NCBI GenBank assembly: GCA_965116415.1
Contig: OZ220693.1
Span: forward strand, 2,488,806 to 2,552,805
Length of the DNA stretch: 64,000 nt
Direction: 5' to 3'
Source: Dehalococcoidia bacterium
GTDB lineage: Bacteria; Chloroflexota; Dehalococcoidia; Lucifugimonadales; UBA1123
Shown here in pieces: positions 6,011 to 55,318 of this stretch. Under the pieces are notes generated by a model, which was given only the letters and a program-made list of their open reading frames with translations, was not told the origin of the DNA and searched no databases. A program made the position numbers and the translations under genes. The stretch's first letter is position 1; every line of letters begins with the position of its first letter.

Positions 6011-6011
6011 C

Positions 6012-7948: not shown

Positions 7949-8916
7949 GCGGCCTGAGTTTCGAGTCTCCCTGGCTGCTCTTCCTGCTGGCGGCGGTGGT
8001 CGCCGTTGGAGTGCTTCCGTATCTGTGGCGACGGCGAATGGCCCCCCCAAGCATGAGGTACGCCGACAATTCTCTCGTCTTAAGCACCCATAGGTCGTTC
8101 CGCCTCCGACTTGCGCCGTTCGTTCCGGTGCTGCGCTTCCTTGCGCTTGCGCTGGTGATAGCGGCTGCTGCAAGGCCACAGGTGGCGGACGCACGCGAGG
8201 TCATCAGGGGCGAGGGCGTGGACATAGCCATCGCGCTCGATATTTCGGGCAGTATGGGGGAGACGGACTTCGCCCCACACAGGCTGGGCGCAGCGAAACA
8301 GATCATTGCAGACTTCATCGACGACAGGCGGTTTGACCGCATCGGTCTCGTCGTGTTCGCGGAGGAGGCGTTCATCCAGAGCCCGCCCACCCTGGACCAC
8401 GGTGTACTCCTCCGTCTGCTCAATGACGTCCATCTTGCCGACGAGATGAGGATAGAGGACGGGACCGCAATGGGCAGCGGCATGGCAACTGCCGCCAACA
8501 TGCTGAAGGACTCGAATGCCGATAGCAAGCTGGTCACGCTGATCACCGACGGCGTCAACAACGCCGGCGAGATCGACCCCATCACTGTTGCGACCGCTGC
8601 GGAGTCGCTCGGCATCAAGCTGTACACGATCGGCGTGGGCTCACCCGGCTCAGGGACAGTACCCGATGAGAACCCACTCGACGAGGAGATGCTCCAGGAG
8701 ATCGCAGACATCTCGAATGCACGGTTCTACCGTGCCACCGACACCGAAGGGTTGAGGAACATCTACGCGGAGATCAACGCGCTGGAGAAGTCCGAGGTGG
8801 AGGTGCTGCTGTTCACGCGCAATAGAGAGCTCCTGGGATGGCTACTGGTCCCGGCGCTGGCGCTTCTGGCGCTCGATCTCGTCCTGTCCCATTCTATTTT
8901 CAGAAGAGTCCCCTGA
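7945..8916 (+). CDS. batA: VWA domain membrane protein, BatA-like
   Basis: N-terminal TMs, MIDAS motif DIAIALDISGSM, C-terminal TM. ATGA overlaps the upstream gene. Confidence 0.8.
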   Translation: MSGLSFESPWLLFLLAAVVAVGVLPYLWRRRMAPPSMRYADNSLVLSTHRSFRLRLAPFVPVLRFLALALVIAAAARPQVADAREVIRGEGVDIAIALDISGSMGETDFAPHRLGAAKQIIADFIDDRRFDRIGLVVFAEEAFIQSPPTLDHGVLLRLLNDVHLADEMRIEDGTAMGSGMATAANMLKDSNADSKLVTLITDGVNNAGEIDPITVATAAESLGIKLYTIGVGSPGSGTVPDENPLDEEMLQEIADISNARFYRATDTEGLRNIYAEINALEKSEVEVLLFTRNRELLGWLLVPALALLALDLVLSHSIFRRVP

Positions 8917-9945
8917 GTGATCATGAGCTTTGGAGCGCCACAGTTTCTATACGCCCTGGTCGTACTCCCCGTGCTGATGGTCTTCGTGTACTGGGCACTG
9001 GCAAGACGGAGAGCGGCGCTGCGGCGCATAGGAGATGCAGACCTAGTCGAACAGATGGCCAGGACCAGCCGAACGCTTCGCATGGTCCGCCTGTCGCTGT
9101 GGTTTCTGGGTAGCGCCCTGATCGTCGTTGCCCTTGCGCGGCCCCAGTGGGGCAGCGAGGTCGAGATCGTAGAACAGAGCGGTGTGCAGATGATGGTCGC
9201 GCTGGACGTTTCACGGAGCATGCTCTCCCCGGACATGGCGCCCACACGACTTGATCGTGCCAAACTGGAGATCTCAGACTTGATGTCGCGTCTGAACGGC
9301 GACGCGGTCGGCATCGTGCTGTTCTCGGGCGCCAGCTTCATCCAGTTCCCGCTGACCTCAGATTACGATACGGCCAGGACATACCTGGCCCATGCAGGCC
9401 CGGACGCCATCACGCGCCAGGGTACGGCAATCAGCGAGGCGATCTACACGGCGTCCGCGGGCTTCAGCGATCAGCGCCTGAGCCAGAAGGTCATAGTCAT
9501 CATGACGGACGGTGAGAACCACGAGGGTGATCCGTTCACGGCCGCGCGGGAGGCGGCAGAGGAGGGCATCGTCATATACACGGTCGGTTTCGGATCTCCA
9601 GAGGGACGGCCCGTTCCGGTGTACGACGAGCAGGGCGCCGTGATCGGCTACCGCCAGGATGCACAGGGTAGTGAGATCATCTCCCGGCTCGACGAGGGTG
9701 CGCTGCAGCAGATCGCCGAGGCCGGAGGAGGCCAGTACTTCAGGGCCTCGGACAGGGGCGCAATCGCAGAACTGGTAGACCAGATCGACTCCTTCCAGAC
9801 CGAGGGCTATCAGAGCGAGCTCAGCCAGAGGAAGGTAGAACGGTTCCAGCTGTTTCTTCTCGGTGGAGCCATCGCTCTTTTGCTGGCAGAGGTGTTGAAT
9901 GACCGCCTGCTGTTGTCGCCGCGCAGACGGTGGCTGGCGGCGTAG
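8917..9945 (+). CDS. batB: VWA domain membrane protein, BatB-like
   Basis: MIDAS motif MMVALDVSRSM, flanked by N- and C-terminal TMs. An ATG alternative exists at 8923. Confidence 0.8.
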   Translation: MIMSFGAPQFLYALVVLPVLMVFVYWALARRRAALRRIGDADLVEQMARTSRTLRMVRLSLWFLGSALIVVALARPQWGSEVEIVEQSGVQMMVALDVSRSMLSPDMAPTRLDRAKLEISDLMSRLNGDAVGIVLFSGASFIQFPLTSDYDTARTYLAHAGPDAITRQGTAISEAIYTASAGFSDQRLSQKVIVIMTDGENHEGDPFTAAREAAEEGIVIYTVGFGSPEGRPVPVYDEQGAVIGYRQDAQGSEIISRLDEGALQQIAEAGGGQYFRASDRGAIAELVDQIDSFQTEGYQSELSQRKVERFQLFLLGGAIALLLAEVLNDRLLLSPRRRWLAA

Positions 9946-9953
9946 GAGCACGC

Positions 9954-10607
9954 ATGTTTCAGCACGCCACGCTGGTTGGCGCAATTGCACTCGCCCTGTC
10001 GGTCACAGCCTGTGGCACGACCCCAGCACAGGTGAACGAGTCAGGCCACGACCCGTATCTGAATGGGGACTACGCAGCGGCTCTTGATGCTTATGAAAAC
10101 GCAGGGGAGCTGGCCTCAGAGGTAGGGGAGCCGCTCTACAACGCCGGAAACGCCCTGTACCGCATGGAACAGTATGACGAGTCGTTGGACTACTACGACG
10201 AGTCACTGCGGTATGCGCGGGACGAGTCGCGCTTGCGCGGGCTGTTCAACCGGGGCAACGCGGCGTACATGATGGAGAACTATGTGGAGGCGGTCGAGGC
10301 GTATATCGAGGTGCTTAGAATCGACCCCGACGATCTCGACGCCAAGCACAACCTGGAGCTGGCTCTGAGGCAACTGCCGCCGGACAGCGACTCTCCGCCT
10401 CCGGATGAGGACGAGACCTCACCACCACCCCAGAGCGAGTCTCCACCGTCGCCGCAGGTTGAATCCCCACCGCCACAGGACGAGCCGATGACCGGAGAGC
10501 AGGCACGGCAGCTACTGGATGCGGTCGGAGAGGATGCACAGACACTGCAGGAGCGAAGAGAACAGTCCCTGGTCTCGTCCAACCCCCAGAGCGAGTTCGA
10601 CTGGTAA
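9954..10607 (+). CDS. batC: TPR lipoprotein, BatC-like, with an acidic Pro/Ser-rich C-terminus
   Basis: ORF 9930..10607. AGGAG lies 5 nt before the ATG at 9954. Lipobox LSVTAC, TPR-like helices, then PPDSDSPPPDEDETSPPPQSESPPSPQVESPPPQDEP. Confidence 0.7.
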   Translation: MFQHATLVGAIALALSVTACGTTPAQVNESGHDPYLNGDYAAALDAYENAGELASEVGEPLYNAGNALYRMEQYDESLDYYDESLRYARDESRLRGLFNRGNAAYMMENYVEAVEAYIEVLRIDPDDLDAKHNLELALRQLPPDSDSPPPDEDETSPPPQSESPPSPQVESPPPQDEPMTGEQARQLLDAVGEDAQTLQERREQSLVSSNPQSEFDW

Positions 10608-10613
10608 CTCGTA

Positions 10614-11990
10614 ATGCGAATCCCCCGGTCCTTACATCACGTCCTGGCCTGCCTGGTGCTTGTCGTGGCGACCCTGGCGTCTTCTTCCATTCACGCACAG
10701 TCTCAGGGCGAAGGGCCACTGTTCGTCCGCGTCTCTGTGGACAACGATCGTCCGTACATCGGCCAGCAGATCACGTATGTCCTCAGGATCTATCAGCGTT
10801 CGGACTTCTCACAGAAGCTTCGGTACATTCCGCCCAGCTTTGCGGGATTATGGAACAGCCAGCCGACCCTGAGAGATGAGTACACCGAGACGGTCGGATC
10901 GGAGCAGTACAGGGTTATCGAGCTGCGGACTCTGCTCTTCCCGAGCGTCGTCGAGACAATCACCATCGAACCCGCCTCGCTGAGGGCAGACTCGGAACTC
11001 CCCGGAGGGTCTGACTCACTTGAGAGCGATCCCATGGTCATCGAGGTGCGCCCTCTGCCCGCAGGCGCCCCGACGGGGTTCGTGGGAGCTGTTGGCCGAT
11101 TCGAGATCTCAGCCGAGGTGAACGCCACCACGGGCACGGCCAACGAACCCGTACTGCTGACCGTAAAGATCATGGGGGACGGCAACGTCGAGGCCCTGCC
11201 GGACCCATCCTGGCCGGAGTTTTCGGGATGGAGAGCCATAGGGTCGCCGCCCGCCTCCAGTGCTGAGGTCATTGATGGAAAGATCACCGGTGTCCGCACC
11301 TATGAGCTCGGGCTGCTGCCGGAGGTGTCCGGCGATCTGACTATTCCGGCGATCGTCTATCCTCACTTCGACCCGGAGGCCGAGCTGTATATTCAGTCCA
11401 AAACCGTGCCCATCGTCGTGACCATAGAGGGCGCCGATGGCGTGTCGCCTCTCGTTTCAGATGATGCCGAGGCGGAGCAGTCCGCGTCGGAAGTGAGGGG
11501 TAACAAGCCTGTTCCCCCCGAGCTCGGACGGTCGAGGAATGGTCTGACGGACACCCCGGTCTATTGGGCCGCGTGGGCTGTTCCGTTGCTCATCATCGTT
11601 GGAGGGGCGATATGGCGACGCAGGGTGGTGGCGCAGGAGGCCGCGCTGGCAACATCACGGCAGCAGAACGCGCTGAGGAACGCGCAGTCTGTTCTCAGAC
11701 GAGCCGCCGCAGATGGCCTCGACACAAGAGTAGCCTCGGCTGATGCCGTCATGTCATACATGTCGGACAAGATGGATGTGACGGAGGGTGGACTGACGCG
11801 TGACTCACTGCACCATTGGCTGGAGGAGGCAGGAGTATCGTCCGACCTCGCGCAAAGAGTCGAGGACACACTGACGGTTGGAGAGGAGGCGAGGTACTCA
11901 CCCGTCGGCGATGGAGGAGGCCGTAGGGAAGGCATGGCAGAACGGACGGATCAACTCCTGACCGACCTGGAGGAGGCGTTCGGGGAATGA
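10614..11990 (+). CDS. batD: BatD-like (oxygen-tolerance family) membrane protein
   Basis: Signal peptide, two beta-rich extracytoplasmic segments, a late TM (VYWAAWAVPLLIIVGGAIW) and a cytoplasmic tail. Its position in the operon also fits. Confidence 0.7.
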   Translation: MRIPRSLHHVLACLVLVVATLASSSIHAQSQGEGPLFVRVSVDNDRPYIGQQITYVLRIYQRSDFSQKLRYIPPSFAGLWNSQPTLRDEYTETVGSEQYRVIELRTLLFPSVVETITIEPASLRADSELPGGSDSLESDPMVIEVRPLPAGAPTGFVGAVGRFEISAEVNATTGTANEPVLLTVKIMGDGNVEALPDPSWPEFSGWRAIGSPPASSAEVIDGKITGVRTYELGLLPEVSGDLTIPAIVYPHFDPEAELYIQSKTVPIVVTIEGADGVSPLVSDDAEAEQSASEVRGNKPVPPELGRSRNGLTDTPVYWAAWAVPLLIIVGGAIWRRRVVAQEAALATSRQQNALRNAQSVLRRAAADGLDTRVASADAVMSYMSDKMDVTEGGLTRDSLHHWLEEAGVSSDLAQRVEDTLTVGEEARYSPVGDGGGRREGMAERTDQLLTDLEEAFGE

Positions 11991-12793
11991 CGAGGTCACG
12001 GAGGCTTTTTGTCGGCACATTGGCCGCACTTGTCGCGCTCATGGCGGTCGCGATTGCAGCGGACGCCCAGGGTCCCGCGGCAGTAGACCTGATGGCCGAG
12101 GCGAACGCCAGATACGACCGCGAAGAGTACGCAGAGGCCGTGCAGCTTTACGAATCTCTCGTCGGCGATGGATACCATGAAACGGCGCTGTACTACAACC
12201 TCGGCAACGCCCACCTGGGTAATGGCGACCTTGGACGGGCGGTCCTGAGCTACCTACGGGCCCGGGAACTGTCCCCTCGAGACCCTGACGTCAATGCCAA
12301 CCTCGAGTTGGCCCGAGAACTGACGGTTGATCGCATTGCGGCCGAGAGGGGATCAATTCTCGAAAGTGTGTCCTACGCCGGGCTCCGGTGGCTGAATCGC
12401 GGCGAACTGGGGCTTGCTGCACTTGGCATGTGGTTTGTGTGCGGAGTCGCAGTTGGTGGGCTGCTGATCTGGAGGACATTTCCAATGAGGCGTGTAGCGC
12501 GCGTCTTCGCGGTCCTCATGGCAGTTACCACGCTTGCGTCAACGCTGTTGTTCCTCAGCACGCTGTACGCGAATCCGTACGACAGCACGGGTGTCGTGAT
12601 TGTCGATGCCGTGGAGGTACTCGATGGGCCCGGATGGCAGTACTCGGAGGAGTTCATCATCCACAGCGGCGCCCAGGTGCGAATGAACGACTCACGTCAC
12701 GGGTGGGTTGAGGTCTCGCTCCCTGGCGGGGAGCTTCAGGGTTGGGTGTCGGCACGTACCGTGGAGGCTGTGGGGCGGGCTGATGGAGGTTGA
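11987..12793 (+). CDS. batE: TPR plus SH3b-like membrane protein, BatE-like
   Basis: TPR helices (YYNLGNAHLGNGDLGRAVLSYLRA), TM segments and a C-terminal GWVEVSLPGGELQGWVSARTVE. ATGA overlaps batD. Confidence 0.7.
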   Translation: MTRSRRLFVGTLAALVALMAVAIAADAQGPAAVDLMAEANARYDREEYAEAVQLYESLVGDGYHETALYYNLGNAHLGNGDLGRAVLSYLRARELSPRDPDVNANLELARELTVDRIAAERGSILESVSYAGLRWLNRGELGLAALGMWFVCGVAVGGLLIWRTFPMRRVARVFAVLMAVTTLASTLLFLSTLYANPYDSTGVVIVDAVEVLDGPGWQYSEEFIIHSGAQVRMNDSRHGWVEVSLPGGELQGWVSARTVEAVGRADGG

Positions 12794-12861: not shown

Positions 12862-14334
12862 CTATTCCATAGCCCCTGCATCTACCAGAATCCGTTCTAT
12901 TTCAGTGTGACCTCGCCAACGTGCAACGTGCAGGAGCGACTCCCCATTGGGCCTTCGGGCGTTGACGTCTGCGCCCGCTTCTACCAGAATCCGGACAGCC
13001 TCTACCTTGTTCCTCCAGACGGCAGTGTACAGCATCGGATCGTTATCTGAATCTCTGGCGTCTAGGTCTGCGTTGGCGTCTACAAGAACCCTGAGTGCCT
13101 CCAGCTTGTCTCGCCAGATGGCGGTGTACAGCATCGGATCGTTGTCAGAATCTCTGGCGTCTAGGTCTGCTTTGGCGTCTACAAGAACCCTGAGTGCCTC
13201 CAGCCTGTCTCGCCAGATGGCGGTGTACAGCATTGGATCGTTGTTGGAGTCTCTGACGTCGACGTCGGCACCCGCATCCACGAGGATCTGCACCTTCTCG
13301 GATTCGGCCCGCCAGATGGCGGTATATAGGTAGGGGTCACCATCCTCATCGCTGACATTGACCTCAATGCCCTGAGCAACCAGGTTTCTCACTTCATCGA
13401 TCGTTCCACGCCAGATTGCTCTGTAGAGTGCAGGATCGCCAGGGGGTAAAGATTCAGCTTTAGCATGTGGGGTCGGTATAGGCGGAATGGGGACGGGCGT
13501 GTTGGTTGTCTGCGGAGTGGGTTCAGGCGTCGGCTCGGGTGTGGGTTCTGGCGTCGGCTCAGGCGTAGGTTCAGGCGTAGGCTCGGGTGTGGGTTCTGGC
13601 GTCGGCTCAGGAGTGGGTTCTGGCGTCGGCTCGGGTGTGGGTTCAGGCGTCGGCTCAGGCGTAGGTTCAGGCGTAGGCTCGGGTGTGGGTTCAGGCGTAG
13701 GCTCAGGAGTGGGTTCTGGCGTCGGCTCGGGTGTGGGTTCAGGTGTCGGCTCAGGAGTAGGTTCAGGCGTCGGCTCGGGTGTGGGTTCAGGCGTAGGCTC
13801 AGGAGTGGGTTCTGGCGTAGGCTCGGGTGTGGGTTCTGGCGTCGGCTCAGGAGTGGGTTCTGGCGTCGGCTCGGGTGTGGGTTCTGGCGTCGGCTCAGGA
13901 GTGGGTTCTGGCGTCGGCTCGGGTGTGGGTTCTGGCGTCGGCTCGGGTGTTGGCTCAGGAGTGGGTTCTGGCGTCGGCTCGGGTGTGGGTTCGGGAGTTG
14001 GCTCAGGAGTGGGTTCGGGCGTCGGCTCAGGAGTAGGTTCTAGCGTCGGCTCCGGCGTCGGGCTGGGAACAGGCGTGTAGGTCGGCGCTGGGGTGAGGGT
14101 TGGCGGAGGCGTGGGCTGGTCGATTGGCACATCAGGACGATCATCAATACCCGGAGGTTCGGCAGTGGGAGCCGGGGTAAGGACATTGGCCGAAACCATC
14201 ACTGGCGCCGGCGTACTGGTGGGACTGGGATTGCCGCCAATCAGACCGCAAGCCAGAAGCATTGGAAGTGTCAGCAGGCAAAAGGCCACTCGGCCCACAG
14301 CCCATGACTTACTGAGCATTATCCGGTCTGTCAT
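12862..14334 (-). CDS. ankyrin-repeat lipoprotein with a roughly 184-aa (TPEP)n linker
   Basis: Lipobox PMLLAC, (T/L)PEP x about 46, then five degenerate 33-aa ANK units ([33 protein letters not shown]). Confidence 0.8.
13513..14064 (-). repeat. 12-bp period coding microsatellite-like array encoding (TPEP) x about 46
   Basis: The unit ggctc[ag]gg[acg]gt[agc]ggttc[at]ggcgt[ac] is iterated. It is open in all plus-strand frames. Confidence 0.9.
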
Positions 14335-14385
14335 CCCTTGGTACCTCCGAGTTGGTGTCCGCCGACCTTGGCGATGAATTGCAAT

Positions 14386-15054
14386 CTACTCCTGGGCTCC
14401 AGCCTCGATGAGGATCTGCTCAATTTCCGTGTGGTCCCGCCACCGTGCCACGTATAGGAGCGACTCGCCGTTGGCCCTTCTCGCGTTGACGTCCGCACCA
14501 GCGTTGACGAGAATCTGTACAGCCCCGACTTTGTTCCTCCAGACCGCGGTGTATAGCAGCGGGTCTTCATCGGCATCGGCGGCATCAACATTCGCGCCTG
14601 CGTCGACCAGGAGTTGTGCGATCTCTGAGTGGCCCCTCCAGATAGCTTCGTACAGTATCGGATTGCCGTCTGTGTCCTTTGCGTTGACGTCGGCCCCTGC
14701 ATCAACGAGCACCCTCGCGACTTCGAGATGGTCACGCCATATCGCTTCATGGAGAAAAGGGTTGCCATCTTCGTCGATTGCGTTGACGTCCGCTCCGTCG
14801 GCTACGAGCTGTCTGACCGTGTTTGCATCCCCTGTCCAAACGGCGCGGTAGAAGGCCGAGTCTATGGATACGGACCTTGAAGCTTGCGTTGGCGCCGTGG
14901 CCGCAGGGGCTACGGATCGAGTGGCGGCAGTCGGCTCAGGTGGTGGTTCTTCGGAAAAGATTCCACAGGCAGCCATTGTCAGCATGGCCAGTACCCCGGC
15001 TGCCAGTTTCAAGTGTGTGTTGGTTACTCTGCGCTCTGTGTTGAGACTGTTCAT
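14386..15054 (-). CDS. ankyrin-repeat lipoprotein (paralogue of 12862..14334 without the long linker)
   Basis: Lipobox LTMAAC. Four to five ANK-like units. The C-terminus ARRANGESLLYVARWRDHTEIEQILIEAGAQE parallels the neighbour [32 protein letters not shown]. Confidence 0.8.
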   Translation of the reverse strand: MNSLNTERRVTNTHLKLAAGVLAMLTMAACGIFSEEPPPEPTAATRSVAPAATAPTQASRSVSIDSAFYRAVWTGDANTVRQLVADGADVNAIDEDGNPFLHEAIWRDHLEVARVLVDAGADVNAKDTDGNPILYEAIWRGHSEIAQLLVDAGANVDAADADEDPLLYTAVWRNKVGAVQILVNAGADVNARRANGESLLYVARWRDHTEIEQILIEAGAQE

Positions 15055-15101
15055 GATTCACTCAACCAAAGGTGGCCCTGTTCGCATAAGCTCGAAGCAC
15101 T

Positions 15102-18100
15102 CTACTCGAGCCACGTGTATTCGATTTCGCAACCGGTCGGCGTCGAGAGTACTATTCCGGTGATGGCGAACGTCACAGTCTCCCCCACAGCCATATCCCC
15201 TATGGATTCAGCTCCCACTATATTTCCGTCAACATAACCCTCGACCCGGACGTGCCTCACGGCCTTGCTTGCGGTGAGGGCACCGGTGATGGTCACGTCA
15301 TAAATCCCACTGAGGTTTGACCTTAATTCGCCAGAGCACTCCGAAATGCTTCCGGTTACAGTATCAGTGGCCGGCTCTTGAGGCGTGGTAGTCGCCGGCG
15401 GCGAGGTGGTAGTAGGAGGCGAGTCTGTCGTGGCGCTGGCGACATTCGACGAGGGACCTGTGCCTGCCGAGTTGATGGCAGACACGCGATAGTAGCGAGT
15501 GCTCCCAGCCGTTAGGCCCGTGTGGGAGTAGCTGGTGGCGGTGGAGCCGGTGTTTGCAACCAGATCGCTCCAACTGGAGTTGTCGGTCGAGACTTCGATC
15601 TTGTAGCCGGCGATGCTGGCTCCTCCGTCAGACGATGGCGCGGTCCAGGATAGGTCTATCTCTGTCTGTCCGTCGGCTGTTGCAGTCAGGTTCGTCGGTG
15701 GGCCGGGCTTCGTGGCTGATTGTGTGGCGATAACGGTTACCTTAAACAGGTCTTCAGACGCTCCCGACGCTCCGTTGCTGTCTCCGGCGTCAACTGCGAC
15801 GATGGTTTCGCCTAAGGTGATCGCCCTGAGACTCAGAACACCAGTGTTGGTGTTAACTGTCCCGGTAAGAATTCCCTCGGTCCGGTATCTAAAGCCGTAG
15901 CTGGTTATTCCGTCGCCGTCCGGGTCCGTGAAGAGCCCGGAGAGGTCCACTGTGAATGATTCACCCAATTCAACGGTCATGTCGTCAACGTTCCCGGTAA
16001 GCTCAGGAGGCCGGTTTGTTCTATCTACTGTCACAGTCACAGCGCTCGAGCAGTTGTTCGTCGTATCGGACTCCCCGGTAACCGTTTCTACGCACACGCC
16101 GTAGTAGTAAGTGCCGAGTGCGGGCGGCGCAGAGGTTCTGGCCGACTTGTCTTCGCTGCCGGAAGGGCTCAGACCATTCACAGAGAGATAGCCTGAAGTC
16201 CCGGCTGTTGGGACTTCAGAGTCACTGGAGGTGATGGTCGCATCGGTGGAGCGGTAGTAGTGCAGTGTGGTAGGACTCGATGAACCATTTCCCCGATTCA
16301 TTACAGTAACGTTCAGAGCGAAGTACTGACGGGGAACCGGGTTGCTGTTGCCGACTGTGAACGTGCTGACTATGAGGTCGGGCGCTGACGACCCGCCGAC
16401 GGTGACTGTCACTGCAGACGAGCAGTTGTTCGTCGTATCTGTCTCGCCGGTCACGGCATCCACACACGCGCCGTAGTAGTAGGTCCCAGCGGAGGATGGA
16501 GCGGTCAGCCTGGCCGATTCGTCTCCGCTCTCCGATGCGTCTATTCGGGACACGTAGTCTGTATCCACTTCTGTGTCACCGGTGGTGATTGTCGAGTCGG
16601 TGGACTGGTAGTAGCGCAGGGTGGTCGAGTCCGAGCGACCGTTGCCCTGGTTGCGCACCGTGGCGTTCAGGGTGATGCTCGCTCCCGCCGCTGGAGCACT
16701 GTCGCTGACCGTGGGCGTGTTCACGACCAGATCCGGCGATGGCGGCGCTCCGACGGTGACTGTCACCGCCGACGAGCAGTTGTTCGTCGTATCTGTCTCG
16801 TCGGTCACTGCATCCACGCAGGCACCGTAGTAGTAGGTGCCCGGAGTGGACGGAGCGGTCAGGTTGATAGACTCGTTGCCGCTCCCCGATGCGTTGAGGC
16901 CAGACACTGGGTCCGTGCCGACCTCAGTATCGCTGGAGGTGATCGTGGAGTCGGAGGACTGGTAGTAGCGAAGCGTGGTCGCGTCCGATCGACCGTTGCC
17001 CTGGTTGCGCACCGTTGCGTTGAGGGTGATGCGGGATCCGGCCGTTGGAGCGCTCTCGCTCACCGTGGGCGTGTCCACCACCAGGTCCGGCGATGGCACC
17101 GCCCCGACGGTGACTGTCACCGCAGATGAGCAGTTGTTGGTCGTGTCCGACTCGTCGGACACCGCATCCACACAGGCGCCGTAGTAGTAGGTGCCCGGAG
17201 TGGACGGCGCGGTCAGGTTGATAGACTCGTTGCCGGCCCTGGATGCACTGAGGCCGAACACGGAGTCTGTGCCGACCGATGTGTCGCCTGTGGTGATGGT
17301 CGTGTCGGTGGACTGGTAGTAGCGAAGCGTGGTCGAGTCCGATCGTCCGTTGCCCTGGTTGCGCACCATGGCGTTCAGGGTGATGCGTGCGCCAGCCGTT
17401 GGAGCGTTGTCGCTGACCGTGGGCGTGTCCACTGCCAGGTCCGGCGCGGGAGCGGCCCCGACGGTGACGGTCACAGCAGTTGAACAGTTGTTGGTCGTGT
17501 CTGACTCGCCGGTCACTGCATCCACACAGGCACCGTAGTAGTAGGTGCCCGGAGTGGACGGAGCGGTCAGGTTGATCCACTCGTTCCCGCTCCTCGATGC
17601 GTTAAGGCTGGACACAGAGTCCGTGCCGACCGCCGTATCGCTGGTGGTGATGGTCGAGTCTGTGGACTGGTAGTAGCGAAGCGTGGTCGAGTCCGATCGT
17701 CCGTTGCCCTGGTTGCGCACCATGGCGTTCAGGGTGATGCGTGCGCCAGCCGTTGGAGCGTTGTCGCTGACCGTGGGCGTGTCCACTGCCAGGTCAGGTG
17801 CGGGAGCGGCGCCGACGGTCACCGTAACCGCAGATGAACAGTTGTTGGTCGTGTCCGACTCGCCGGTTACCGCGTCCACGCATGCGCCGTAGTAGTAGGT
17901 GCCCGGAGTGGACGGAGCGGTCAGGTTGATAGACTGGTTGCCGGCCCTGGATGCACTGAGACCGAACATGGAGTCTCTGCCGACCGATGTGTCGCCTGTG
18001 GTGATGGTCGCGTCGGTGGACTGGTAGTAGCGCAGCGTGGTGGAGTCCGATCGTCCGTTGCCCTGGTTGCGCACAGTGGCACTCAGGGTGATGCGGGATC

Positions 18101-21100
18101 CGGCCGTGGGAGCGCTCTCGCTGACCGTGGGCGTGTCCACTGCCAGGTCAGGTGCGGGAGCGGCGCCGACGGTCACAGTTACCGCAGATGAACAGTTGTT
18201 GGTAGTATCTGTCTCGCCGGTCACCGCATCCACACAGGCGCCGTAGTAGTACGTGCCCGGAGTGGACGGAGCGGTCAGGCTGACCGACTCGTTGCCGGCC
18301 CTGGATGCACTGAGGCCGAACACTGAGTCGGCACCAACCTCTGTATCACTGGTGGTGATTGTCGAGTCTGAGGACTGGTAGTAGCGCAGCGTGGTCGAGT
18401 CTGCCGCTCCATTGCCCTGGTTTCGGACCGTGGCGTTGAGCGTGAAGCTCGCACCTGCTGTCGGAGCACTGGTGTCGACAGTTGGTGTGTTCACCACCAG
18501 ATCCGGCGCGGTCGCTGCGCCAGTGGTGGCGCTGGCGACGTTGGACGTGGGGCCAGTACCCTCTGAGTTGATGGCCGAAACCCGGTAGTGGCGAGTGCTG
18601 CTCGCTGTCAATCCAGTGTGGGAGTGGGTCGTTGCGCTCGATCGGCTGTCGGCAACAAGGTCGCTCCAACTGGAGCCGTCGGGTGACACCTCGATTCTGT
18701 AACCTGTGATGGCTGAGCCGCCCGTGTTCTGAGGGGCACTCCAGGACAGGTCGATCTGGGTCTGCCCGTTGGCTGTCGCAGCAAGACTCGTCGGAGCACC
18801 CGGAGCCATGCCTCTGGCTGTTTGGGTGACGGTCGCAGACCAGGGTCCGTCTCCGGTCGCATTGACCGCCCTAACCTGGATGTCGTACTGAACCCCGCCT
18901 TGCAGATTGGCCAACTCGTAGCTCAGCGCGCCCGAGCCAGTCCAGACATCCTGAACGACCGTCCAGTTGGAGTCGGCCTTGCTTGTGGCGTCGCTGCGAA
19001 TGTGACGCAGATCGTAGGCGGTGATTTCAGAGCCGCCGGTCTGGGTCGGTGCCCGCCACGACACCGTCAGCGAACTGTGGCCCGACGTTATCTGTCTGAT
19101 TGAAGGTGCAGACAGGCCACCTAATCCGGTGACCTCGATCGTGTAAACGCGACTGTCGAGGCCGTCCGACGTGGCGACCTTGATCTGGATGGTCGTGACC
19201 ACGCCTGCAGGCACGTCCACCTGATGTCCCGCCTGCGCTCCATCGGCGTCGGCCAATACTCCGTCGTTTTGATCGAGGTACTGGAACGTCGCGTTGTGGC
19301 GACTCGCGGCACTAACGGTGATACTGGATGCAGTGGCCGCAGCAGTATATCCGGTTACGTAGGAGTCGAACCCGGGTCTCAGATCGGCCGGCGTGATGCT
19401 CAGTCCGCTCAGCAGCACGTCGCAATATGGGATTTCAATTTCCTTGAGCCGATGTGAACGGTCGGTGCTTGCAACGCTTCTCAACTCTGCCGGAACGCAT
19501 CCAGTGAACCGGTTGCCGGCAAGCCACACTTGCTCCAAGTTCGTCAGGCGCCCCAGTCCAGCCGGAATCTCCCCCGTGAGCTGGTTGTCGTGAAGAGTCA
19601 GCCAGCGAAGGTTGGTGAGGTTGCCCAGCTCGGGCGGAATCGGCCCGGTCAACTGGTTGGTGTCGAGATGAAGAGCCTCGAGTCTGGAAAGGCTGCCCAG
19701 TTCAGGAGGTATCGTTCCGTGCAGGTTATTGTCATAGAGTTCCAGTCCCTGAAGGTTGGACAGCCCACTCAGTTCTGGAGGTATGGTGCCGGTTAGCTGG
19801 TTGATGCCCAAGAAAATCTGATTCAGTCGACTCAGGTCAGCCAGCTCTGGGGGTATTGACCCGGTCAGCTCATTGTCCAACAGGGTCAGTTGCTCCAAGC
19901 CGTTCAACTCACCCAATTCCGGCGGAAGCGTTCCGGATAAACCCCGGTTGGGAAGGTACAGCAAGGTAACACGCTGGGGCGTCCCCCCCATGATGATTCC
20001 GTCCCAGTCCGTGATGGGTGTGCTGGAAGACCAGTTCAGCGTCCCGCTGCCCGCCAGGGTGTCCCGCACCGCCAGCAGAATGTCGCAGTCGGCCAACAGG
20101 GCGAGGTTGTCGTGCGGGTCGATCACGGCCCCACCGGTAGAGCAGGGAGTCTCTGCAACAGTTGGCGTGCCCGTGCCTGTGGCCGACCAGGGACCGTCCT
20201 CTGTGCTGTTCACAGCCCGCATCTGTATACCGTATTCAGTGCCCGCTCTCAGCCCGGTCAACTCGTAACTCAGCGCACCTGAACCAGATGTCCAGACGTC
20301 TTCCACAATGGTCCAGTTGGCGTCGACCGTGTCATCGGTTGAGATATCGATGTGACGCAGATCGTAGGAAGTGACGGCCGAGCCTCCGTCACTCGTTGGA
20401 GCGTTCCATGCTACTGTCAGGGCGTTCACTCCGGGCGTTACCGAAACCACGGACGGTGATCCTAATAGTTGCGGTGGGTTCGGAGGGAGCACGATGAAGC
20501 CATGCCCCCATGTATTGTTGGGGTCGGTGCTCTCTCGCTGCTGTGCGTTGTCCTTCAGGTAGGACACGACCTGAGCAGGTGTGTAGTCGGGAAACCTCTG
20601 GCGCACGAGCGCGGCAAGGCCAGCGACATGGGGCGACGCCTGGCTGGTGCCACAAAAGGGACGGGAACTCGAAGCGGTTTCGCCGCAATCCGCCCCGACC
20701 AGGTCCGGCTTGATGCGTCCGTCAGGCGTGGGACCACGGCTGCTGTAGCTCTCCATGGTGTTCACGTCATTCCAATGGGCCGCGCCAACTGCCAGCATGC
20801 CGGGGTTGGCACTCTCCGCCGGATTGACTATGCTGCCGGTCTCCGGGGTATTGAAATTCAGCGATGTTCCGCCCCAGCCCAGCAACTGGATCCAGTCTGG
20901 CTCACTTCCCCCGACGTGCGCGATCAGTATGTCGGATCGCGTTCCCGTGATAACGGTCTCGTACGGGTTGTGCCAATTCTCTCCCGATTGGGGGTCGGTG
21001 CTAAAGAGAACGACATCTCCTGTTCCCGGTCTCGCAAGAAGAAGATCTAGGTTCCTGTCGGCTCCGCCCCAAGTATCGTCCCAGCGGAGGACCAGCCGCC

Positions 21101-22505
21101 CCCAGATGTGAGAGTTGTTGCGGAAGTCGGATCCGTCGAAGTTTACGACTCTGACCTCCTCTCCATCGACGTCTATGGTGCTATATGAAAAAGGACGGCG
21201 TTTGAACCAAGTCCTCTGGGCCTGGTTGCCCGCTGCGTTAACCCAAACGATCCCGGCTGCAACAGCGGTGTCCACGGTGTTCAGCGGACTGATAGACAGC
21301 GGAGAGGTTCCATCACCGGGCCCGTCGAACTCCCAGTGCATGGAGTGGTTGATAACCGATACACCCTCAGAAATCATCCAGTCCACGGTGGCCTTCAGAT
21401 CGCTCAAGGTATCCGGATCAGCTATGTACAGTGAAACATCAGGAGCGATGTCCATGACGGACTCCGCGACCCTCGTGCCGTGATTGCCCCCGTTTGCACA
21501 GTGCTCGAGGTCCTGTGAGTGCGCGCCAACCCACTGATAGCATCTTGCCTGTACTGTTGCTGGCACTTCGCTTCCCATGAGGTCGGCGAACCCGCTGAAC
21601 CCGGAGTCGATCACTCCCACCTTGATGCCCTGACCGGTGAATCCTGCCTGGTTCCAGGCCGGAGAACCGTGAACCCCGGAGCCATCTCCGGGGATTCCTG
21701 ACTGGCTCTGTGGGGCTTCCGGCGGCTGGATAACGCGGACTCGAAGCACCCCTGGCTGCTCCGAGGTTTCCGCCACTTTCAGGACCGGCACATAGGCTTC
21801 TATGTAGTCGTCTCCGGAGGCGATGTTGGAGCCGCCGTTGTTCTCGAGGAAAGACACCACGCCATCGACGTTACCTGATAGGTAGATGGTGACCGCTACC
21901 GAGTCTCCACGATGCAGGGGAGCCTCCTGAGCGGCGTCCTCTGCGGAGACTGCACCTGACTCGATCCTGGCGATCAGGTCGTCCAGCATTGATCCGACCT
22001 TGGGATGTTGAAGCTCAGTCTTTCCCCCCGAGAAAGTGAACTGGGTTGTTGGCCCTGCTGCGGGTGCTGGAGTGCCTGAGGCGGGCTGCTGGGCCACAGG
22101 TGTGGATACGGCCTGTGGAGGAGGTGTTGCTGTGGGCTGTGGGACTGCAACGGGCGCCGGAGTCGGCGTGAATGCAGGTGAAATCGCCTGTGCCGGGGTT
22201 GCTGCTGGCGCCGGGGGAGGCACGGCTGTTGGATACGGGGTGGCCGTCGGATACGGAGTCGCGGTGGGATACGGGGTGGCCGTCGGATATGCGGTGGCCT
22301 GGGGCTCGATTTCTATTTCTGAACGAGGTTCACCGGCGCCTGGCGACACGGTTAGAGGTGGCGTGATGCCGGGTGGCGCAGCCGGAGTTGGTTCCGTATC
22401 GCCAGTGAAAAGGCCGCAGGCCAGCATGACCCATATGGTCAGTCCCAGCAATAGAGTCCTGGCGATGGCACCGACTCCTGGGCGCAACACGCGGCCGCAG
22501 ATCAC
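15102..22505 (-). CDS. giant (2467 aa) surface lipoprotein: S8 subtilisin-like protease, FN3, Cys-capped LRR, cadherin-like beta-sandwich, 2 FN3, 7 CARDB-like repeats, cadherin/dystroglycan-like domain, FN3, C-terminal domain
   Basis: Lipobox VMLAC and (YPTATP)x4. S8 triad motifs VGVIDSGF (D300), GGNHGTRVAE (H342) and GTSQASPHVAG (S621). LRR consensus LxxLxLxxNxLTGxIPPELGxLxxL. CARDB-like unit APDLxVxTPTVS...TLNATVRNQGNG...TLRYYQS...GTYYYGACVDAV..E.DTTNNCS. Confidence 0.9.
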   Translation of the reverse strand: MICGRVLRPGVGAIARTLLLGLTIWVMLACGLFTGDTEPTPAAPPGITPPLTVSPGAGEPRSEIEIEPQATAYPTATPYPTATPYPTATPYPTAVPPPAPAATPAQAISPAFTPTPAPVAVPQPTATPPPQAVSTPVAQQPASGTPAPAAGPTTQFTFSGGKTELQHPKVGSMLDDLIARIESGAVSAEDAAQEAPLHRGDSVAVTIYLSGNVDGVVSFLENNGGSNIASGDDYIEAYVPVLKVAETSEQPGVLRVRVIQPPEAPQSQSGIPGDGSGVHGSPAWNQAGFTGQGIKVGVIDSGFSGFADLMGSEVPATVQARCYQWVGAHSQDLEHCANGGNHGTRVAESVMDIAPDVSLYIADPDTLSDLKATVDWMISEGVSVINHSMHWEFDGPGDGTSPLSISPLNTVDTAVAAGIVWVNAAGNQAQRTWFKRRPFSYSTIDVDGEEVRVVNFDGSDFRNNSHIWGRLVLRWDDTWGGADRNLDLLLARPGTGDVVLFSTDPQSGENWHNPYETVITGTRSDILIAHVGGSEPDWIQLLGWGGTSLNFNTPETGSIVNPAESANPGMLAVGAAHWNDVNTMESYSSRGPTPDGRIKPDLVGADCGETASSSRPFCGTSQASPHVAGLAALVRQRFPDYTPAQVVSYLKDNAQQRESTDPNNTWGHGFIVLPPNPPQLLGSPSVVSVTPGVNALTVAWNAPTSDGGSAVTSYDLRHIDISTDDTVDANWTIVEDVWTSGSGALSYELTGLRAGTEYGIQMRAVNSTEDGPWSATGTGTPTVAETPCSTGGAVIDPHDNLALLADCDILLAVRDTLAGSGTLNWSSSTPITDWDGIIMGGTPQRVTLLYLPNRGLSGTLPPELGELNGLEQLTLLDNELTGSIPPELADLSRLNQIFLGINQLTGTIPPELSGLSNLQGLELYDNNLHGTIPPELGSLSRLEALHLDTNQLTGPIPPELGNLTNLRWLTLHDNQLTGEIPAGLGRLTNLEQVWLAGNRFTGCVPAELRSVASTDRSHRLKEIEIPYCDVLLSGLSITPADLRPGFDSYVTGYTAAATASSITVSAASRHNATFQYLDQNDGVLADADGAQAGHQVDVPAGVVTTIQIKVATSDGLDSRVYTIEVTGLGGLSAPSIRQITSGHSSLTVSWRAPTQTGGSEITAYDLRHIRSDATSKADSNWTVVQDVWTGSGALSYELANLQGGVQYDIQVRAVNATGDGPWSATVTQTARGMAPGAPTSLAATANGQTQIDLSWSAPQNTGGSAITGYRIEVSPDGSSWSDLVADSRSSATTHSHTGLTASSTRHYRVSAINSEGTGPTSNVASATTGAATAPDLVVNTPTVDTSAPTAGASFTLNATVRNQGNGAADSTTLRYYQSSDSTITTSDTEVGADSVFGLSASRAGNESVSLTAPSTPGTYYYGACVDAVTGETDTTNNCSSAVTVTVGAAPAPDLAVDTPTVSESAPTAGSRITLSATVRNQGNGRSDSTTLRYYQSTDATITTGDTSVGRDSMFGLSASRAGNQSINLTAPSTPGTYYYGACVDAVTGESDTTNNCSSAVTVTVGAAPAPDLAVDTPTVSDNAPTAGARITLNAMVRNQGNGRSDSTTLRYYQSTDSTITTSDTAVGTDSVSSLNASRSGNEWINLTAPSTPGTYYYGACVDAVTGESDTTNNCSTAVTVTVGAAPAPDLAVDTPTVSDNAPTAGARITLNAMVRNQGNGRSDSTTLRYYQSTDTTITTGDTSVGTDSVFGLSASRAGNESINLTAPSTPGTYYYGACVDAVSDESDTTNNCSSAVTVTVGAVPSPDLVVDTPTVSESAPTAGSRITLNATVRNQGNGRSDATTLRYYQSSDSTITSSDTEVGTDPVSGLNASGSGNESINLTAPSTPGTYYYGACVDAVTDETDTTNNCSSAVTVTVGAPPSPDLVVNTPTVSDSAPAAGASITLNATVRNQGNGRSDSTTLRYYQSTDSTITTGDTEVDTDYVSRIDASESGDESARLTAPSSAGTYYYGACVDAVTGETDTTNNCSSAVTVTVGGSSAPDLIVSTFTVGNSNPVPRQYFALNVTVMNRGNGSSSPTTLHYYRSTDATITSSDSEVPTAGTSGYLSVNGLSPSGSEDKSARTSAPPALGTYYYGVCVETVTGESDTTNNCSSAVTVTVDRTNRPPELTGNVDDMTVELGESFTVDLSGLFTDPDGDGITSYGFRYRTEGILTGTVNTNTGVLSLRAITLGETIVAVDAGDSNGASGASEDLFKVTVIATQSATKPGPPTNLTATADGQTEIDLSWTAPSSDGGASIAGYKIEVSTDNSSWSDLVANTGSTATSYSHTGLTAGSTRYYRVSAINSAGTGPSSNVASATTDSPPTTTSPPATTTPQEPATDTVTGSISECSGELRSNLSGIYDVTITGALTASKAVRHVRVEGYVDGNIVGAESIGDMAVGETVTFAITGIVLSTPTGCEIEYTWLE
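16026..18509 (-). repeat. seven tandem coding repeats (six at exactly 354 bp/118 aa plus one divergent unit of about 360 bp), CARDB-like domains
   Basis: Antisense mini-ORFs in the ORF track recur at 16621, 16975, 17329, 17683, 18037 and 18391 (354-bp spacing). Units 3 and 4 are nearly identical at protein level. Confidence 0.9.
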
Positions 22506-22646
22506 GCAGCATCCTCCCGAGCGTACGTTGTCTGAAGAGACAACCTACCAATGGCCCGCATTCTACAGAGATAAACTGGCTTTGACACTGATTATTCACA
22601 CGAGTTGAAGCCCTGGGCCCCATTAAGTAACGTGCGTCAAGACTCA

Positions 22647-22664
22647 GTCACGTGACTGTCACGT
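22647..22664. promoter_or_regulatory. perfect 10-bp palindrome GTCACGTGAC followed by a second GTCACGT in the divergent intergenic region
   Basis: The sequence agTCACGTGACtGTCACGTac was read directly. CACGTGAC recurs at 22732-22739. It lies between the giant-protein gene and the orphan kinase gene. Confidence 0.2.
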
Positions 22665-22883: not shown

Positions 22884-24116
22884 ATGAACTACGTCGAGGC
22901 GATTCCACGCAACCCCTTTGGACGGTTCGGTCATGGGTATGACCAGAGCGACCCAGACGACTTCCGCTTCAGTATGAGGATAGCCGTGTGGGTGCGTTGG
23001 TTCCTGGTGCTCGCATGGCTGACTCAGCACAACTACAGGGTGAGTTTCGATCACCCCGCGTATGTAGCCCACACTGTGTTGGCGGTGCTGCTGCTGGCCC
23101 TCAATGCCTACGTTCACTACCGGATCGAGACGGGAAAGACCCTGACATGGCGCTGGGGTCTTTCGCTCAGTACGCTGGACATGGTGTTGCTTACGGGTGG
23201 GCTCGCGATCTCAGGGGGATTTGGGAACACCTTCTTCGTTCTCTACTACGCCACCCTGGCAATGTTCGCTGTTGTCTTCACATCCCTCAGGGTCAGCTTT
23301 GCAGGTGTGACAGTGACCGCTGGCGTGTATGCAGCCCTGAGCCTGATGGTGGATCCTGGCATCGACTTTTCCATAGAGCAGGAAAAGGTCCTGTTCATGA
23401 GGATTGTCGTTATGTATGCGGTTGTGGCGGCGGTCAGCCTGGTGTCGAGATTCGAGAGGTACAGGCGAAGAGAGGCGGTGGAGCGGGAGAGGGAACTACA
23501 GAGAGAGCGGATCGAACTCTCACAGACCATTCATGACACGATAGCCCAGTCAACCTACGTGATTGGACTCGGCCTGGAGACCGCGATCGACCTTGCGAGG
23601 GAACACAAGGAACACGCTCTCGATGACCTCCTGTCAAAGCTGGATGCCACCCATGCACTTGCCAGATCCACCATGTGGGAGCTAAGACATCAGATCGACA
23701 TCGGTCCAATCTTCGAGGGTCGGGAGCTGAACAGGGTATTGCGTTCTCACACTTCAACCTTCGCCACGATCACCTCGATTCCAACGGAATTTGTCCAATC
23801 CGGCGAGGAGCCACCACTCCCTCTAACCACGAGGCGGCTGCTCTTCTCGATCGCTCATAACGGTCTGACGAACGCTCTCCGTCACGCCAGTGCCACAAAG
23901 ATAGTGATCTCTCTGGAATTTCAGGGAGACAGGCTGCGAATGTCGATAGCCGACGACGGTATTGGGCTCTCAGGCGAATACGAGGACAGTGGTCGAGGCA
24001 TCAGCAACATGAGAACAGACGCAGAGCGCCTCGGCGGTATCCTGGAAGTTGGCCCTGACAGGTTCGGACGGGGCACCACCGTGACCACCACGATTCCAGT
24101 GAAAGTTGAATCGTGA
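22884..24116 (+). CDS. membrane sensor histidine kinase (HisKA_3/NarL-partner type), no adjacent response regulator
   Basis: AGGAGG lies 7 nt upstream of the start. About 5 TM segments. H-box TIHDTIAQ. ATPase motifs HNGLTNALRHA and DDGIGL. Confidence 0.85.
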   Translation: MNYVEAIPRNPFGRFGHGYDQSDPDDFRFSMRIAVWVRWFLVLAWLTQHNYRVSFDHPAYVAHTVLAVLLLALNAYVHYRIETGKTLTWRWGLSLSTLDMVLLTGGLAISGGFGNTFFVLYYATLAMFAVVFTSLRVSFAGVTVTAGVYAALSLMVDPGIDFSIEQEKVLFMRIVVMYAVVAAVSLVSRFERYRRREAVERERELQRERIELSQTIHDTIAQSTYVIGLGLETAIDLAREHKEHALDDLLSKLDATHALARSTMWELRHQIDIGPIFEGRELNRVLRSHTSTFATITSIPTEFVQSGEEPPLPLTTRRLLFSIAHNGLTNALRHASATKIVISLEFQGDRLRMSIADDGIGLSGEYEDSGRGISNMRTDAERLGGILEVGPDRFGRGTTVTTTIPVKVES

Positions 24117-24417
24117 TGGCGTATGCGGGGCCTGTCCTGCCATGGAGCCGCCCGCATACGGATAGTCCCAGGAAGTGGTCGGACACAGGGATGAGTGGGA
24201 CACAACGGCAGCACTTCGACCCACAGCGATATGGTGTCTACGAGTTGCGCCCGCGGGAAAACCCGGCAGCCCAACTTTGTAGTAGTATGAAAGGCAGGCC
24301 GAATTCATCGTGGCATTCACATCCACAGGGTAGCGCGAAAGATCCCCTCTCTCCACCGGCACGGGGACAAGTTTTGCAGGGATGTCCGGTAAGGAGTCAA
24401 GAACAGAAAGCGTGACC

Positions 24418-26042: not shown

Positions 26043-26299
26043 CAATCCCATATTGCCCCTGTAACTTGATGTGCTGATGGGATGGCCGATTCTAGGCGCC
26101 AGAAGGCGCGGGTCCGGTCTGCGCGTCCGCACCAATGACGATCCGGCTGCCGCGCCGGATGGTGCCTTCGATCCAGTTCGCCACGCCGAGCGAATGTATT
26201 GGACATGGGAAAACAGGACTTTGGACAGTCGGGGGACGGCGTTCCCGAAGGATCCATTCGTTCAGCGCAATTGCGTGCGCCATGCAGGGAGAAGTGGCA

Positions 26300-53985: not shown

Positions 53986-54126
53986 CTATGTCCTCAGTGG
54001 GCGACCGCAATCTCGCACCCGGGGTGCGAAGACTCATTGGCGCTCGTTCGCCGTCGAGGACACAGCACAAGCTCGCAGCTGATGCGGAGAATAAGCCTTC
54101 GGACAGGTCTCCTATTGGCCAACCAT

Positions 54127-55308: not shown

Positions 55309-55318
55309 TGACTCGCAC

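Follow-up and report, generated by a model that had tools for sequence, protein, structure and literature searches.

Ankyrin-repeat (ANK) proteins predicted to act outside the cell that makes them are already known from sponge systems: some proteins of sponge symbionts and phages, e.g. ANKp of the 'Ankyphages', have a signal peptide at the N-terminus and are presumed to dampen phagocytosis outside the producer, and sponge-symbiont ankyrin-repeat proteins were reportedly tested in amoebae by Nguyen et al. in 2014. Giant subtilisin-family (S8) surface proteinases are likewise known; the streptococcal C5a peptidases ScpA and ScpB cut a host immune mediator, and in the clostridial subtilase CspB the prodomain stays bound after cleavage. 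The lactocepin PrtP needs the separately encoded maturation protein PrtM (PMC7783315), and Bdellovibrio Bd3460 binds and inhibits the adjacent endopeptidase Bd3459 (PMC4686830). Here we analyse a 64,000-nucleotide stretch of DNA from a Dehalococcoidia bacterium of the Chloroflexota (assembly GCA_965116415.1, contig OZ220693.1, positions 2,488,806-2,552,805), hereafter the window, and in it three minus-strand genes for a giant S8 lipoprotein and two ankyrin lipoproteins, ANK1 and ANK2. Based on gene order, profile matches, structural models and related loci we propose, with moderate confidence, that this kinase-flanked, probable operon encodes an exported, lipid-tethered pro-subtilase together with two stalked ankyrin binders, and that these act on an extracellular protein, likeliest one of a host. 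The cluster is laid out as follows.

22884-24116, plus strand: HisKA_3 sensor histidine kinase, divergent, a conserved neighbour of the cluster (Pfam)
22560-22588, minus strand: sigma-70-like promoter match (9/12), weak, the sole match upstream of gene 1 in a consensus scan
15102-22505, minus strand: gene 1, multidomain pro-subtilase lipoprotein of 2467 residues (translation, Pfam, orthologues)
14386-15054, minus strand: gene 2 (ANK1, 222 residues), lipobox T-M-A-A-C30, disordered linker of about 30 residues, five WR-type ankyrin repeats (residues 61-222)
12862-14334, minus strand: gene 3 (ANK2, 490 residues), lipobox M-L-L-A-C29, 266-residue Pro/Thr/Glu stalk, six WR-type ankyrin repeats

A first, sequence-only reading of the window had described three minus-strand lipobox genes separated by 47 nt (giant gene to ANK1) and 51 nt (ANK1 to ANK2), and open reading frames (ORFs), gaps and lipobox rule all agree with it. 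The giant gene begins with GTG, 7 nt downstream of a Shine-Dalgarno sequence (GGGAGG, 22513-22518), the ANK2 gene is preceded by GGAGGT, and a scan of the intergenic gaps found no terminator-like hairpin between the three genes. Together, the three compact genes form a conserved unit and are probably co-transcribed as an operon. A perfect palindrome in the kinase/giant intergenic region (GTCACGTGAC, 22647-22656) was dropped as an operator candidate, being neither over-represented nor conserved in relatives. All three N-termini show a basic n-region, a hydrophobic h-region and a lipobox (VMLAC, TMAAC, MLLAC) followed by Gly, as scored with a PROSITE PS51257-type rule ([LVI..][ASTVI..][GAS]-C after the n- and h-regions, within the first ~40 residues). 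The lipobox cysteine is invariant in 14 of 14 aligned ANK relatives and present in all six giant orthologues whose N-terminus is in view. The three proteins would accordingly leave the cell by the Sec/lipoprotein pathway and be tethered to the outer face of the cell membrane; no lgt or lspA gene lies within the 64-kb window.

The gene order is kept in ten related loci from Dehalococcoidia/Chloroflexota metagenome-assembled genomes (MAGs) and metagenome contigs, each with a giant S8 lipoprotein orthologue (L001-L005, L012-L014, L168, L249) followed by one to four ankyrin lipoproteins. In the eight loci seeded with the ankyrin sequence (L001-L005, L012-L014), the giant gene lies directly upstream of the tandem ankyrin genes. 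The two others (L168, L249) consist of a kinase and a LuxR-type regulator, a CARDB-type S8 giant and an ankyrin lipoprotein of the same WR type, and provide an unbiased check of the S8-ANK link because they were found through the S8 domain alone. When GTDB species genomes were scanned with the ankyrin alignment, the closest matches lay in Dehalococcoidia/Chloroflexota MAGs (best DAOUKV01, 69% identity); across the loci ankyrin identity falls to 35-54% while the adjacency holds, and the ankyrin genes, although varying from one to four copies, always stand directly after the giant gene on the same strand with short gaps. A Bat/MoxR operon adjoins the cluster in most relatives in either orientation, convergent with the ankyrin genes in the window, L004, L005 and L012-L014 and co-directional in L001-L003, with the S8-then-ANK order unchanged, and is absent from the vicinity in L168 and L249. 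Conservation in relatives, which had been put forward as a check, is thus borne out in ten loci regardless of the Bat operon, and by this comparative evidence the S8-ANK cluster is not a chance juxtaposition. The HisKA_3 kinase is found divergently upstream wherever that flank is in view (synteny in L002-L005, L012 and L013), and this neighbouring two-component system would control the operon. There is no response regulator beside the kinase in the window, the downstream ORF (24113-24415) not being one.

The chain of the giant protein runs from the predicted lipid anchor through a Pro/Thr/Ala linker, a predicted prodomain and the protease to an array of FN3, LRR, cadherin-like and CARDB modules some 1700 residues long, closed by an 82-residue tail. 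Its parts, all on the minus strand, are listed here.

22416-22505, minus strand: signal peptide and lipobox V-M-L-A-C30, Gly at +2 (PROSITE-type rule, hydrophobicity)
22011-22415, minus strand: Pro/Thr/Ala-rich linker (residues 31-165) including 4 x TATPYP (DNA repeat 22231-22299; composition, Tandem Repeats Finder (TRF))
21732-21902, minus strand: predicted subtilisin-type prodomain, beta-alpha-beta-beta-alpha-beta (residues 202-258; AlphaFold2 (AF2) at a predicted local distance difference test score (pLDDT) of ~87-94, Foldseek)
20406-21659, minus strand: S8 catalytic domain (residues 283-700; BPN' alignment, motifs, orthologues, AF2/Foldseek)
21606-21608, 21480-21482, 21225-21227 and 20643-20645, minus strand: catalytic codons of Asp300, His342, Asn427 and Ser621, respectively
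20877-21212, minus strand: beta-rich insertion in the S8 domain (residues 432-543), between Asn427 and Ser621 (AF2)
20106-20372, minus strand: FN3-1
19416-19973, minus strand: plant-type 24-residue LRR block (residues ~845-1030; Pfam LRR_4/LRR_8)
19110-19388, minus strand: cadherin-like sandwich (Cadherin-like PF12733, 23.9 bits)
18531-19103, minus strand: FN3-2/3
16101-18524, minus strand: seven tandem CARDB domains in 118-residue units (DNA period 354, 84% matches; Pfam, TRF)
15720-16094, minus strand: Cadherin_4-like segment
15435-15713, minus strand: FN3-4
15105-15350, minus strand: C-terminal 82-residue domain with no Pfam family match (tblastn)

Pfam matches comprise Peptidase_S8 (PF00082, E 4e-22, 79.4 bits against a cut-off of 21.8), four fn3, LRR and seven CARDB domains (E 1e-79), which upholds the LRR, FN3 and CARDB entries of the domain list given earlier; the two cadherin-like segments fall just under their cut-offs (23.9 vs 24.2 and 24.5 vs 25.1 bits). 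Asp300, His342, Asn427 and Ser621 align to D32, H64, N155 and S221 of subtilisin BPN', i.e. the catalytic triad and oxyanion Asn in subtilisin order, and all four are kept in eight orthologues; judged by its residues, the S8 domain is catalytically intact. The AF2 model of residues 166-720 (52-sequence alignment, overall pLDDT 74) resolves a confident unit at residues 202-258, a subtilase core and the beta-rich insertion at 432-543. Its best Foldseek matches in the PDB are pro-forms, namely C. difficile CspC/CspA, ProN-Tk-SP and pro-subtilisin E, and the best 50 of the 182 matches at E<=1e-3 are all subtilases or Csp proteins; neither a Pfam I9 propeptide in the giant nor a Pfam family for the beta-rich insertion was matched. 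The gene 1 product would thus be a membrane-tethered zymogen, in which anchor and linker precede prodomain and active protease and the module array lends reach and binding surface.

Beyond the protease the protein is modular: LRR, cadherin-like and FN3 content and the number of CARDB domains vary between orthologues, and the 82-residue tail is conserved only in L003 (66%) and L013 (45%) by tblastn. The CARDB array is spanned at DNA level by a 354-nt tandem unit (16396-18511, 6 copies, 84%) and a 99-nt unit (12980-13260, 2.8 copies, 88% matches) lies in the ankyrin repeats of ANK2; these duplications indicate recent repeat expansion and account for the breaks within the giant gene in other assemblies, e.g. 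ERZ25072185:contig_176, which holds a 100%-identical S8 fragment of a fragmented giant gene and ends inside it.

With PrtP/PrtM and ScpA/ScpB the giant shares very large size, an S8 protease and arrays of FN3-like beta-sandwiches and, by prediction, also a prodomain and display on a monoderm surface. Unlike them, its C-terminus (…GCEIEYTWLE) has neither LPXTG nor a hydrophobic tail, the anchor being the N-terminal lipobox before the prodomain; it has no match to a PA domain but a different beta-rich insertion between Asn427 and Ser621, and its partner genes encode ankyrins, not a PrsA/PrtM-type isomerase as for PrtP. It is therefore an analogue of the PrtP/ScpA-type proteinases rather than a member. 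The clostridial Csp subtilases (CspB/CspC/CspA) match the modelled N-terminal region in their succession of prodomain, subtilase and inserted beta-rich domain (Foldseek E 2e-14, TM 0.57), a resemblance in structure alone, as identity is ~16% and the Csp proteins are spore germination factors of ~550 residues with no lipobox or adhesin-like array.

Both ankyrin proteins score above the Pfam gathering thresholds for Ank, Ank_2 and Ank_4 (E 1e-24 to 1e-26) with a 33-residue repeat register, and their PDB matches, down to E 1e-71, include ankyrin and DARPins. In the AF2 model of ANK1 a signal helix and a disordered linker (pLDDT <50) precede ten helices in five repeats at pLDDT 97-99; the ankyrin domain of ANK2 (residues 296-490, 12865-13449) is 51% identical to that of ANK1. 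The 266-residue linker of ANK2 is 83% Pro/Thr/Glu and contains the following repeat.

13513-14040, minus strand: 44 x EPTP tandem repeat in the ANK2 stalk (residues 99-274, 176 residues; TRF periods 24/48, count)

The spacer of about 184 residues described earlier roughly fits this array and understates the full stalk. Across 220 repeats of 74 relatives, Trp is found at repeat position 13 in 89%, Arg at 14 in 84%, Asp at 3 in 62% and Asp/Asn at 5 in 82%, and we coin the name WR-ANK for this Chloroflexota-specific subfamily with a fixed Trp/Arg groove. In the DARPin design reportedly published by Binz et al. in 2003, positions 2, 3, 5, 13, 14 and 33 were randomised as target-contacting. As far as the alignment tells, the WR-ANK groove is fixed and uniform across repeats, which is unusual for ankyrins, whose binding positions are normally hypervariable. 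Such a repeat-uniform groove suggests a ligand that is itself periodic.

Among relatives that have two or more WR motifs, an export signal is predicted in 78 of 81, as a lipobox in 19 and a hydrophobic signal or transmembrane segment in 59; the three others lack an N-terminal hydrophobic segment, and two of these (P0067, P0115) start inside an ankyrin repeat and look truncated. Export thus appears to be a property of the whole family, and the earlier prediction that the ankyrins lie outside the cytoplasm gains support as more than a quirk of one gene. The accompanying emphasis on ankyrins as intracellular or effector modules was less well placed, as extracytoplasmic bacterial precedents exist in Bd3460, periplasmic RARP-1 and signal-peptide ANKp. 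Among the 79 GTDB species loci retrieved, the WR motif occurs only in those of Dehalococcoidia/Chloroflexota. A scan of JGI metagenomes with the ankyrin alignment gave no WR-type locus among the matches listed (80 loci), which is weak evidence of absence; these matches (at least 600) are generic ankyrins, the best 45% identical. In NCBIfam the repeat matches (Xop LRR effectors, Legionella Ank effectors) all stayed below threshold, and no family was reached. A phage origin like that of the 'Ankyphage' proteins was considered and rejected, since a scan of IMG/VR returned only generic ankyrins at no more than 41% identity and no WR motif.

The WR-ankyrins of this cluster resemble the sponge-symbiont proteins and ANKp in that they are predicted to act outside the producer cell. 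They differ in being predicted as lipid-tethered on Pro/Thr-rich stalks instead of free, in the Chloroflexota-specific fixed groove, in the invariable link to a giant S8 gene and in having no close relative in the IMG/VR viral contigs scanned. Bd3460/Bd3459 offers a second likeness in gene adjacency, an extracytoplasmic ankyrin encoded beside a secreted hydrolase. It differs in that Bd3460 acts on a peptidoglycan DD-endopeptidase instead of an S8 protease and is soluble in the periplasm of a diderm; WR-ankyrin paralogues also occur without a protease. What appears new here is the stalked, lipoprotein-tethered format, the Trp/Arg groove and the invariant coupling to a CARDB-type pro-subtilase; a description of the combination of lipoprotein-tethered WR-ankyrin and pro-subtilase was not found in the literature searched, the coverage of which is incomplete.

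Other WR-ankyrins are either Sec-type with a Cys-containing N-domain or of transmembrane type, and follow kinase/regulator pairs with no protease nearby. The Sec-type paralogues (L082, L163-L166) have in common a conserved Cys-containing N-domain (…QWPTTCVDLNDIVE…) and are always placed after a HisKA_3 kinase and a LuxR/GerE response regulator and before an ABC permease, a layout that suggests a second conserved WR-ANK context under two-component control. In two ANK1 orthologues from different assemblies, P0001 and P0004 (L001:10001-10864, L002:10001-10834), the same out-of-frame C-terminal tail (…PVHRGLAGENGGSEDSHR…) replaces the last repeats, owing either to a real frameshift common to both or to a long-read error that recurs. 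Furthermore, downstream lipoproteins at L003:10861-13179, L003:13238-14527 and L001:10861-11895 share the ANK2 signal peptide and early linker (…PAPVMVS.N.LTP.PT…), and their C-terminal heads differ, being a PD40/TolB-like beta-propeller (by eye) or divergent ankyrins; together with ANK2 they look like users of a common 'signal + stalk' cassette with swappable heads.

In the mechanism that we favour, the ankyrin solenoids of five and six repeats, on stalks of ~30 and 266 residues, would serve as displayed binding modules and not as injected effectors, with grooves lined in every repeat by the same Trp-Arg pair (and Asp/Asn), and the protease would cleave extracellular protein on the cell or close to it. 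An animal (sponge) host, with its extracellular matrix or its cell surfaces, would be the likeliest setting. A WR-ANK paralogue, P0008, lies on contig 'IrcVar142' of IMG 3300003251, which is listed among sponge metagenomes (PMC7848895), and this makes a host-interaction role plausible; the MAG name RHO1_bin_9 hints less strongly in the same direction, as do metaMDBG-style contig names of the kind used in sponge genome notes. Enrichment in ANK, LRR, TPR, FN3 and cadherin genes is reported for sponge Chloroflexi and for further MAGs from sponges (PMC6306507, PMC8163846), in agreement with what the sequence-only reading had invoked, and the window carries ANK, LRR, TPR, FN3 and cadherin-type domains as expected of such eukaryotic-like proteins. 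A sponge association of the lineage is thus plausible. Symbionts pose a puzzle in that eukaryote-like domains are enriched, yet most sponge MAGs have no secretion systems for delivery to host cells (PMC8163846); the locus offers a concrete and testable answer for one abundant lineage, by way of Sec export, a lipid anchor and long Pro/Thr stalks, with no injection machinery. Handles for follow-up are the WR-ANK subfamily, easily expressed and with a mutable Trp, the giant pro-subtilase partner and the HisKA_3 kinase as candidate regulator. Even without a host link, the cluster is a clean example of how large surface enzymes are built in monoderm Chloroflexota.

Several points weigh against this proposal. 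The S8 family is large (1779 matches at E<=1e-10) and many paralogues have other C-terminal modules and no ankyrin neighbour, as in L169 (S8-PPC) and L248 (S8-LRR), so the idea that all S8 paralogues have an ankyrin partner was rejected. The eight loci found through the ankyrin come from relatives in which the kinase and the Bat operon are syntenic too, and their conservation is in part inheritance. As the predicted lipid anchor precedes the predicted prodomain, prodomain cleavage may separate the enzyme from its anchor, save where the cleaved prodomain remains attached, and the mature protease is perhaps released from the membrane; of the 'protease-adhesin lipoprotein' read earlier, lipobox and S8 domain stand, and 'surface-anchored protease' may hold for the zymogen only. 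Surface exposure of the lipoproteins, finally, needs a single membrane. An ABC solute-binding protein with a lipobox is the usual monoderm arrangement, and the SBP_bac_5 transporter protein in the window carries one, which supports monoderm-type tethering. Chloroflexi have an outer-membrane gene pattern like that of monoderm phyla, yet their envelope type is still debated and described as unresolved (PMC8871954); the earlier 'surface-exposed' is therefore backed by the predicted export signals and depends on a monoderm envelope that is likely but disputed.

In the main rival, the protease would have the ankyrin lipoproteins as its dedicated partners, either as a docking receptor that retains the mature enzyme or, in protection of the producer's own surface, as an inhibitor or maturation factor. 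An ankyrin gene directly behind the CARDB-type giant in the window and ten relatives, the Bat-less L168 and L249 included, is what this would predict, both partners are predicted on the same membrane face, and the anchor N-terminal of the prodomain calls for a retention mechanism; an ankyrin that inhibits the enzyme encoded next door (Bd3460/Bd3459, PMC4686830) and a giant S8 proteinase that requires a maturation protein (PrtP/PrtM, PMC7783315) are precedents. We still consider it unlikely, though the best placed of the competitors: Sec- and transmembrane-type WR-ankyrins with the same groove are found by kinase/regulator pairs and ABC permeases without a protease (L082, L163-L166, L006), ankyrins are missing beside the S8 paralogues that end in PPC or LRR modules, and an identical groove in each repeat points to a periodic ligand more than to one epitope on a globular enzyme.

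A bolder variant, which we regard as doubtful, would make the WR-ankyrins lineage-specific extracellular receptors for a periodic polymer that serve as docking posts of two heights, capturing the giant subtilase once prodomain cleavage has freed it. Candidate polymers are a polyproline-II or collagen-like chain, the Pro/Thr-rich stalks on surface proteins of the same cell, or an acidic or sulfated glycan. If true, monoderm Chloroflexota would assemble a surface layer that bears enzymes in a manner not described before, and this would be the route by which sponge symbionts without secretion systems present eukaryote-like proteins to the host.

Improbable in our view, and less likely than either the host-protein or the protease-partner explanation, is a nutrient-scavenging exoprotease of a free-living marine heterotroph, with repeats as spacers or substrate binders, unrelated ankyrins and no host. 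Also in the window are genes for a peptide/oligopeptide-type ABC binding protein and a permease, a luciferase-like monooxygenase, an amidohydrolase and lactonases, which fit a degrader of organic matter; use of amino acids is described for sponge SAR202 genomes (PMC6306507), and giant S8 cell-envelope proteinases feed lactic acid bacteria (PMC7783315). Such a scavenger accords poorly with the density of exported ANK, LRR, TPR, FN3 and cadherin-like proteins in the window, with the related WR-ankyrin from a sponge metagenome and with the lack of a WR-type relative among the matches listed for the 80 JGI loci, and it leaves the constant ankyrin link to one CARDB-type protease subfamily unexplained. 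That the three genes are neighbours through shared ancestry in one MAG family only, with no functional link, is least likely, as the order survives inversion of the Bat operon, occurs without it in L168 and L249, is kept at 35-54% ankyrin identity and always places one to four ankyrin copies directly behind the giant on the same strand with short gaps, even though kinase and Bat/MoxR operon are also syntenic in most relatives and the ANK-seeded loci are biased towards relatives.

We note that stand-alone ORFs consisting of a lipobox or transmembrane segment, a linker and a subtilase prodomain only (L248:8140-8817, L169:7099-7785, L169:11319-12038) adjoin complete S8 paralogues where transposases abound; they represent either fragments of pseudogenes or propeptide-like inhibitors tethered to the membrane.

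The Bat/MoxR operon of the window (5015-12793, plus strand) runs MoxR ATPase, DUF58, a gene of no known type, BatA-vWA, BatB-vWA, a TPR lipoprotein (9930-10607), BatD and TPR. BatA/BatB vWA, both TPR proteins and BatD are assigned by Pfam, and MoxR and DUF58 by 72-84% identity to relatives' genes annotated bpMoxR/AAA_3 and DUF58. The neighbouring TPR genes, previously counted in a 'eukaryotic-like block', are thus ordinary parts of a MoxR-DUF58-BatA-BatB-TPR-BatD-TPR operon. Elsewhere on the plus strand are an 8-repeat TPR protein with a lipobox (1953-2999, Cys39), a 1358-residue LRR protein with Cadherin-like and Big_12 domains (38369-42445) and a 591-residue ORF (26135-27910) with no Pfam or NCBIfam match that is conserved in the near-identical contig L167. 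At 54000-58000 on the minus strand, G+C content is 0.51 vs ~0.61 elsewhere; this region holds a DNA-methylase-like ORF (54127-55455) and an 861-residue HATPase_c_3 (MORC/Hsp90-like) ORF (55319-57904), and has the look of a defence or restriction-type island that was acquired. Not far away are an IS66-like transposase (45239-46285) and a NERD nuclease (43380-44462).

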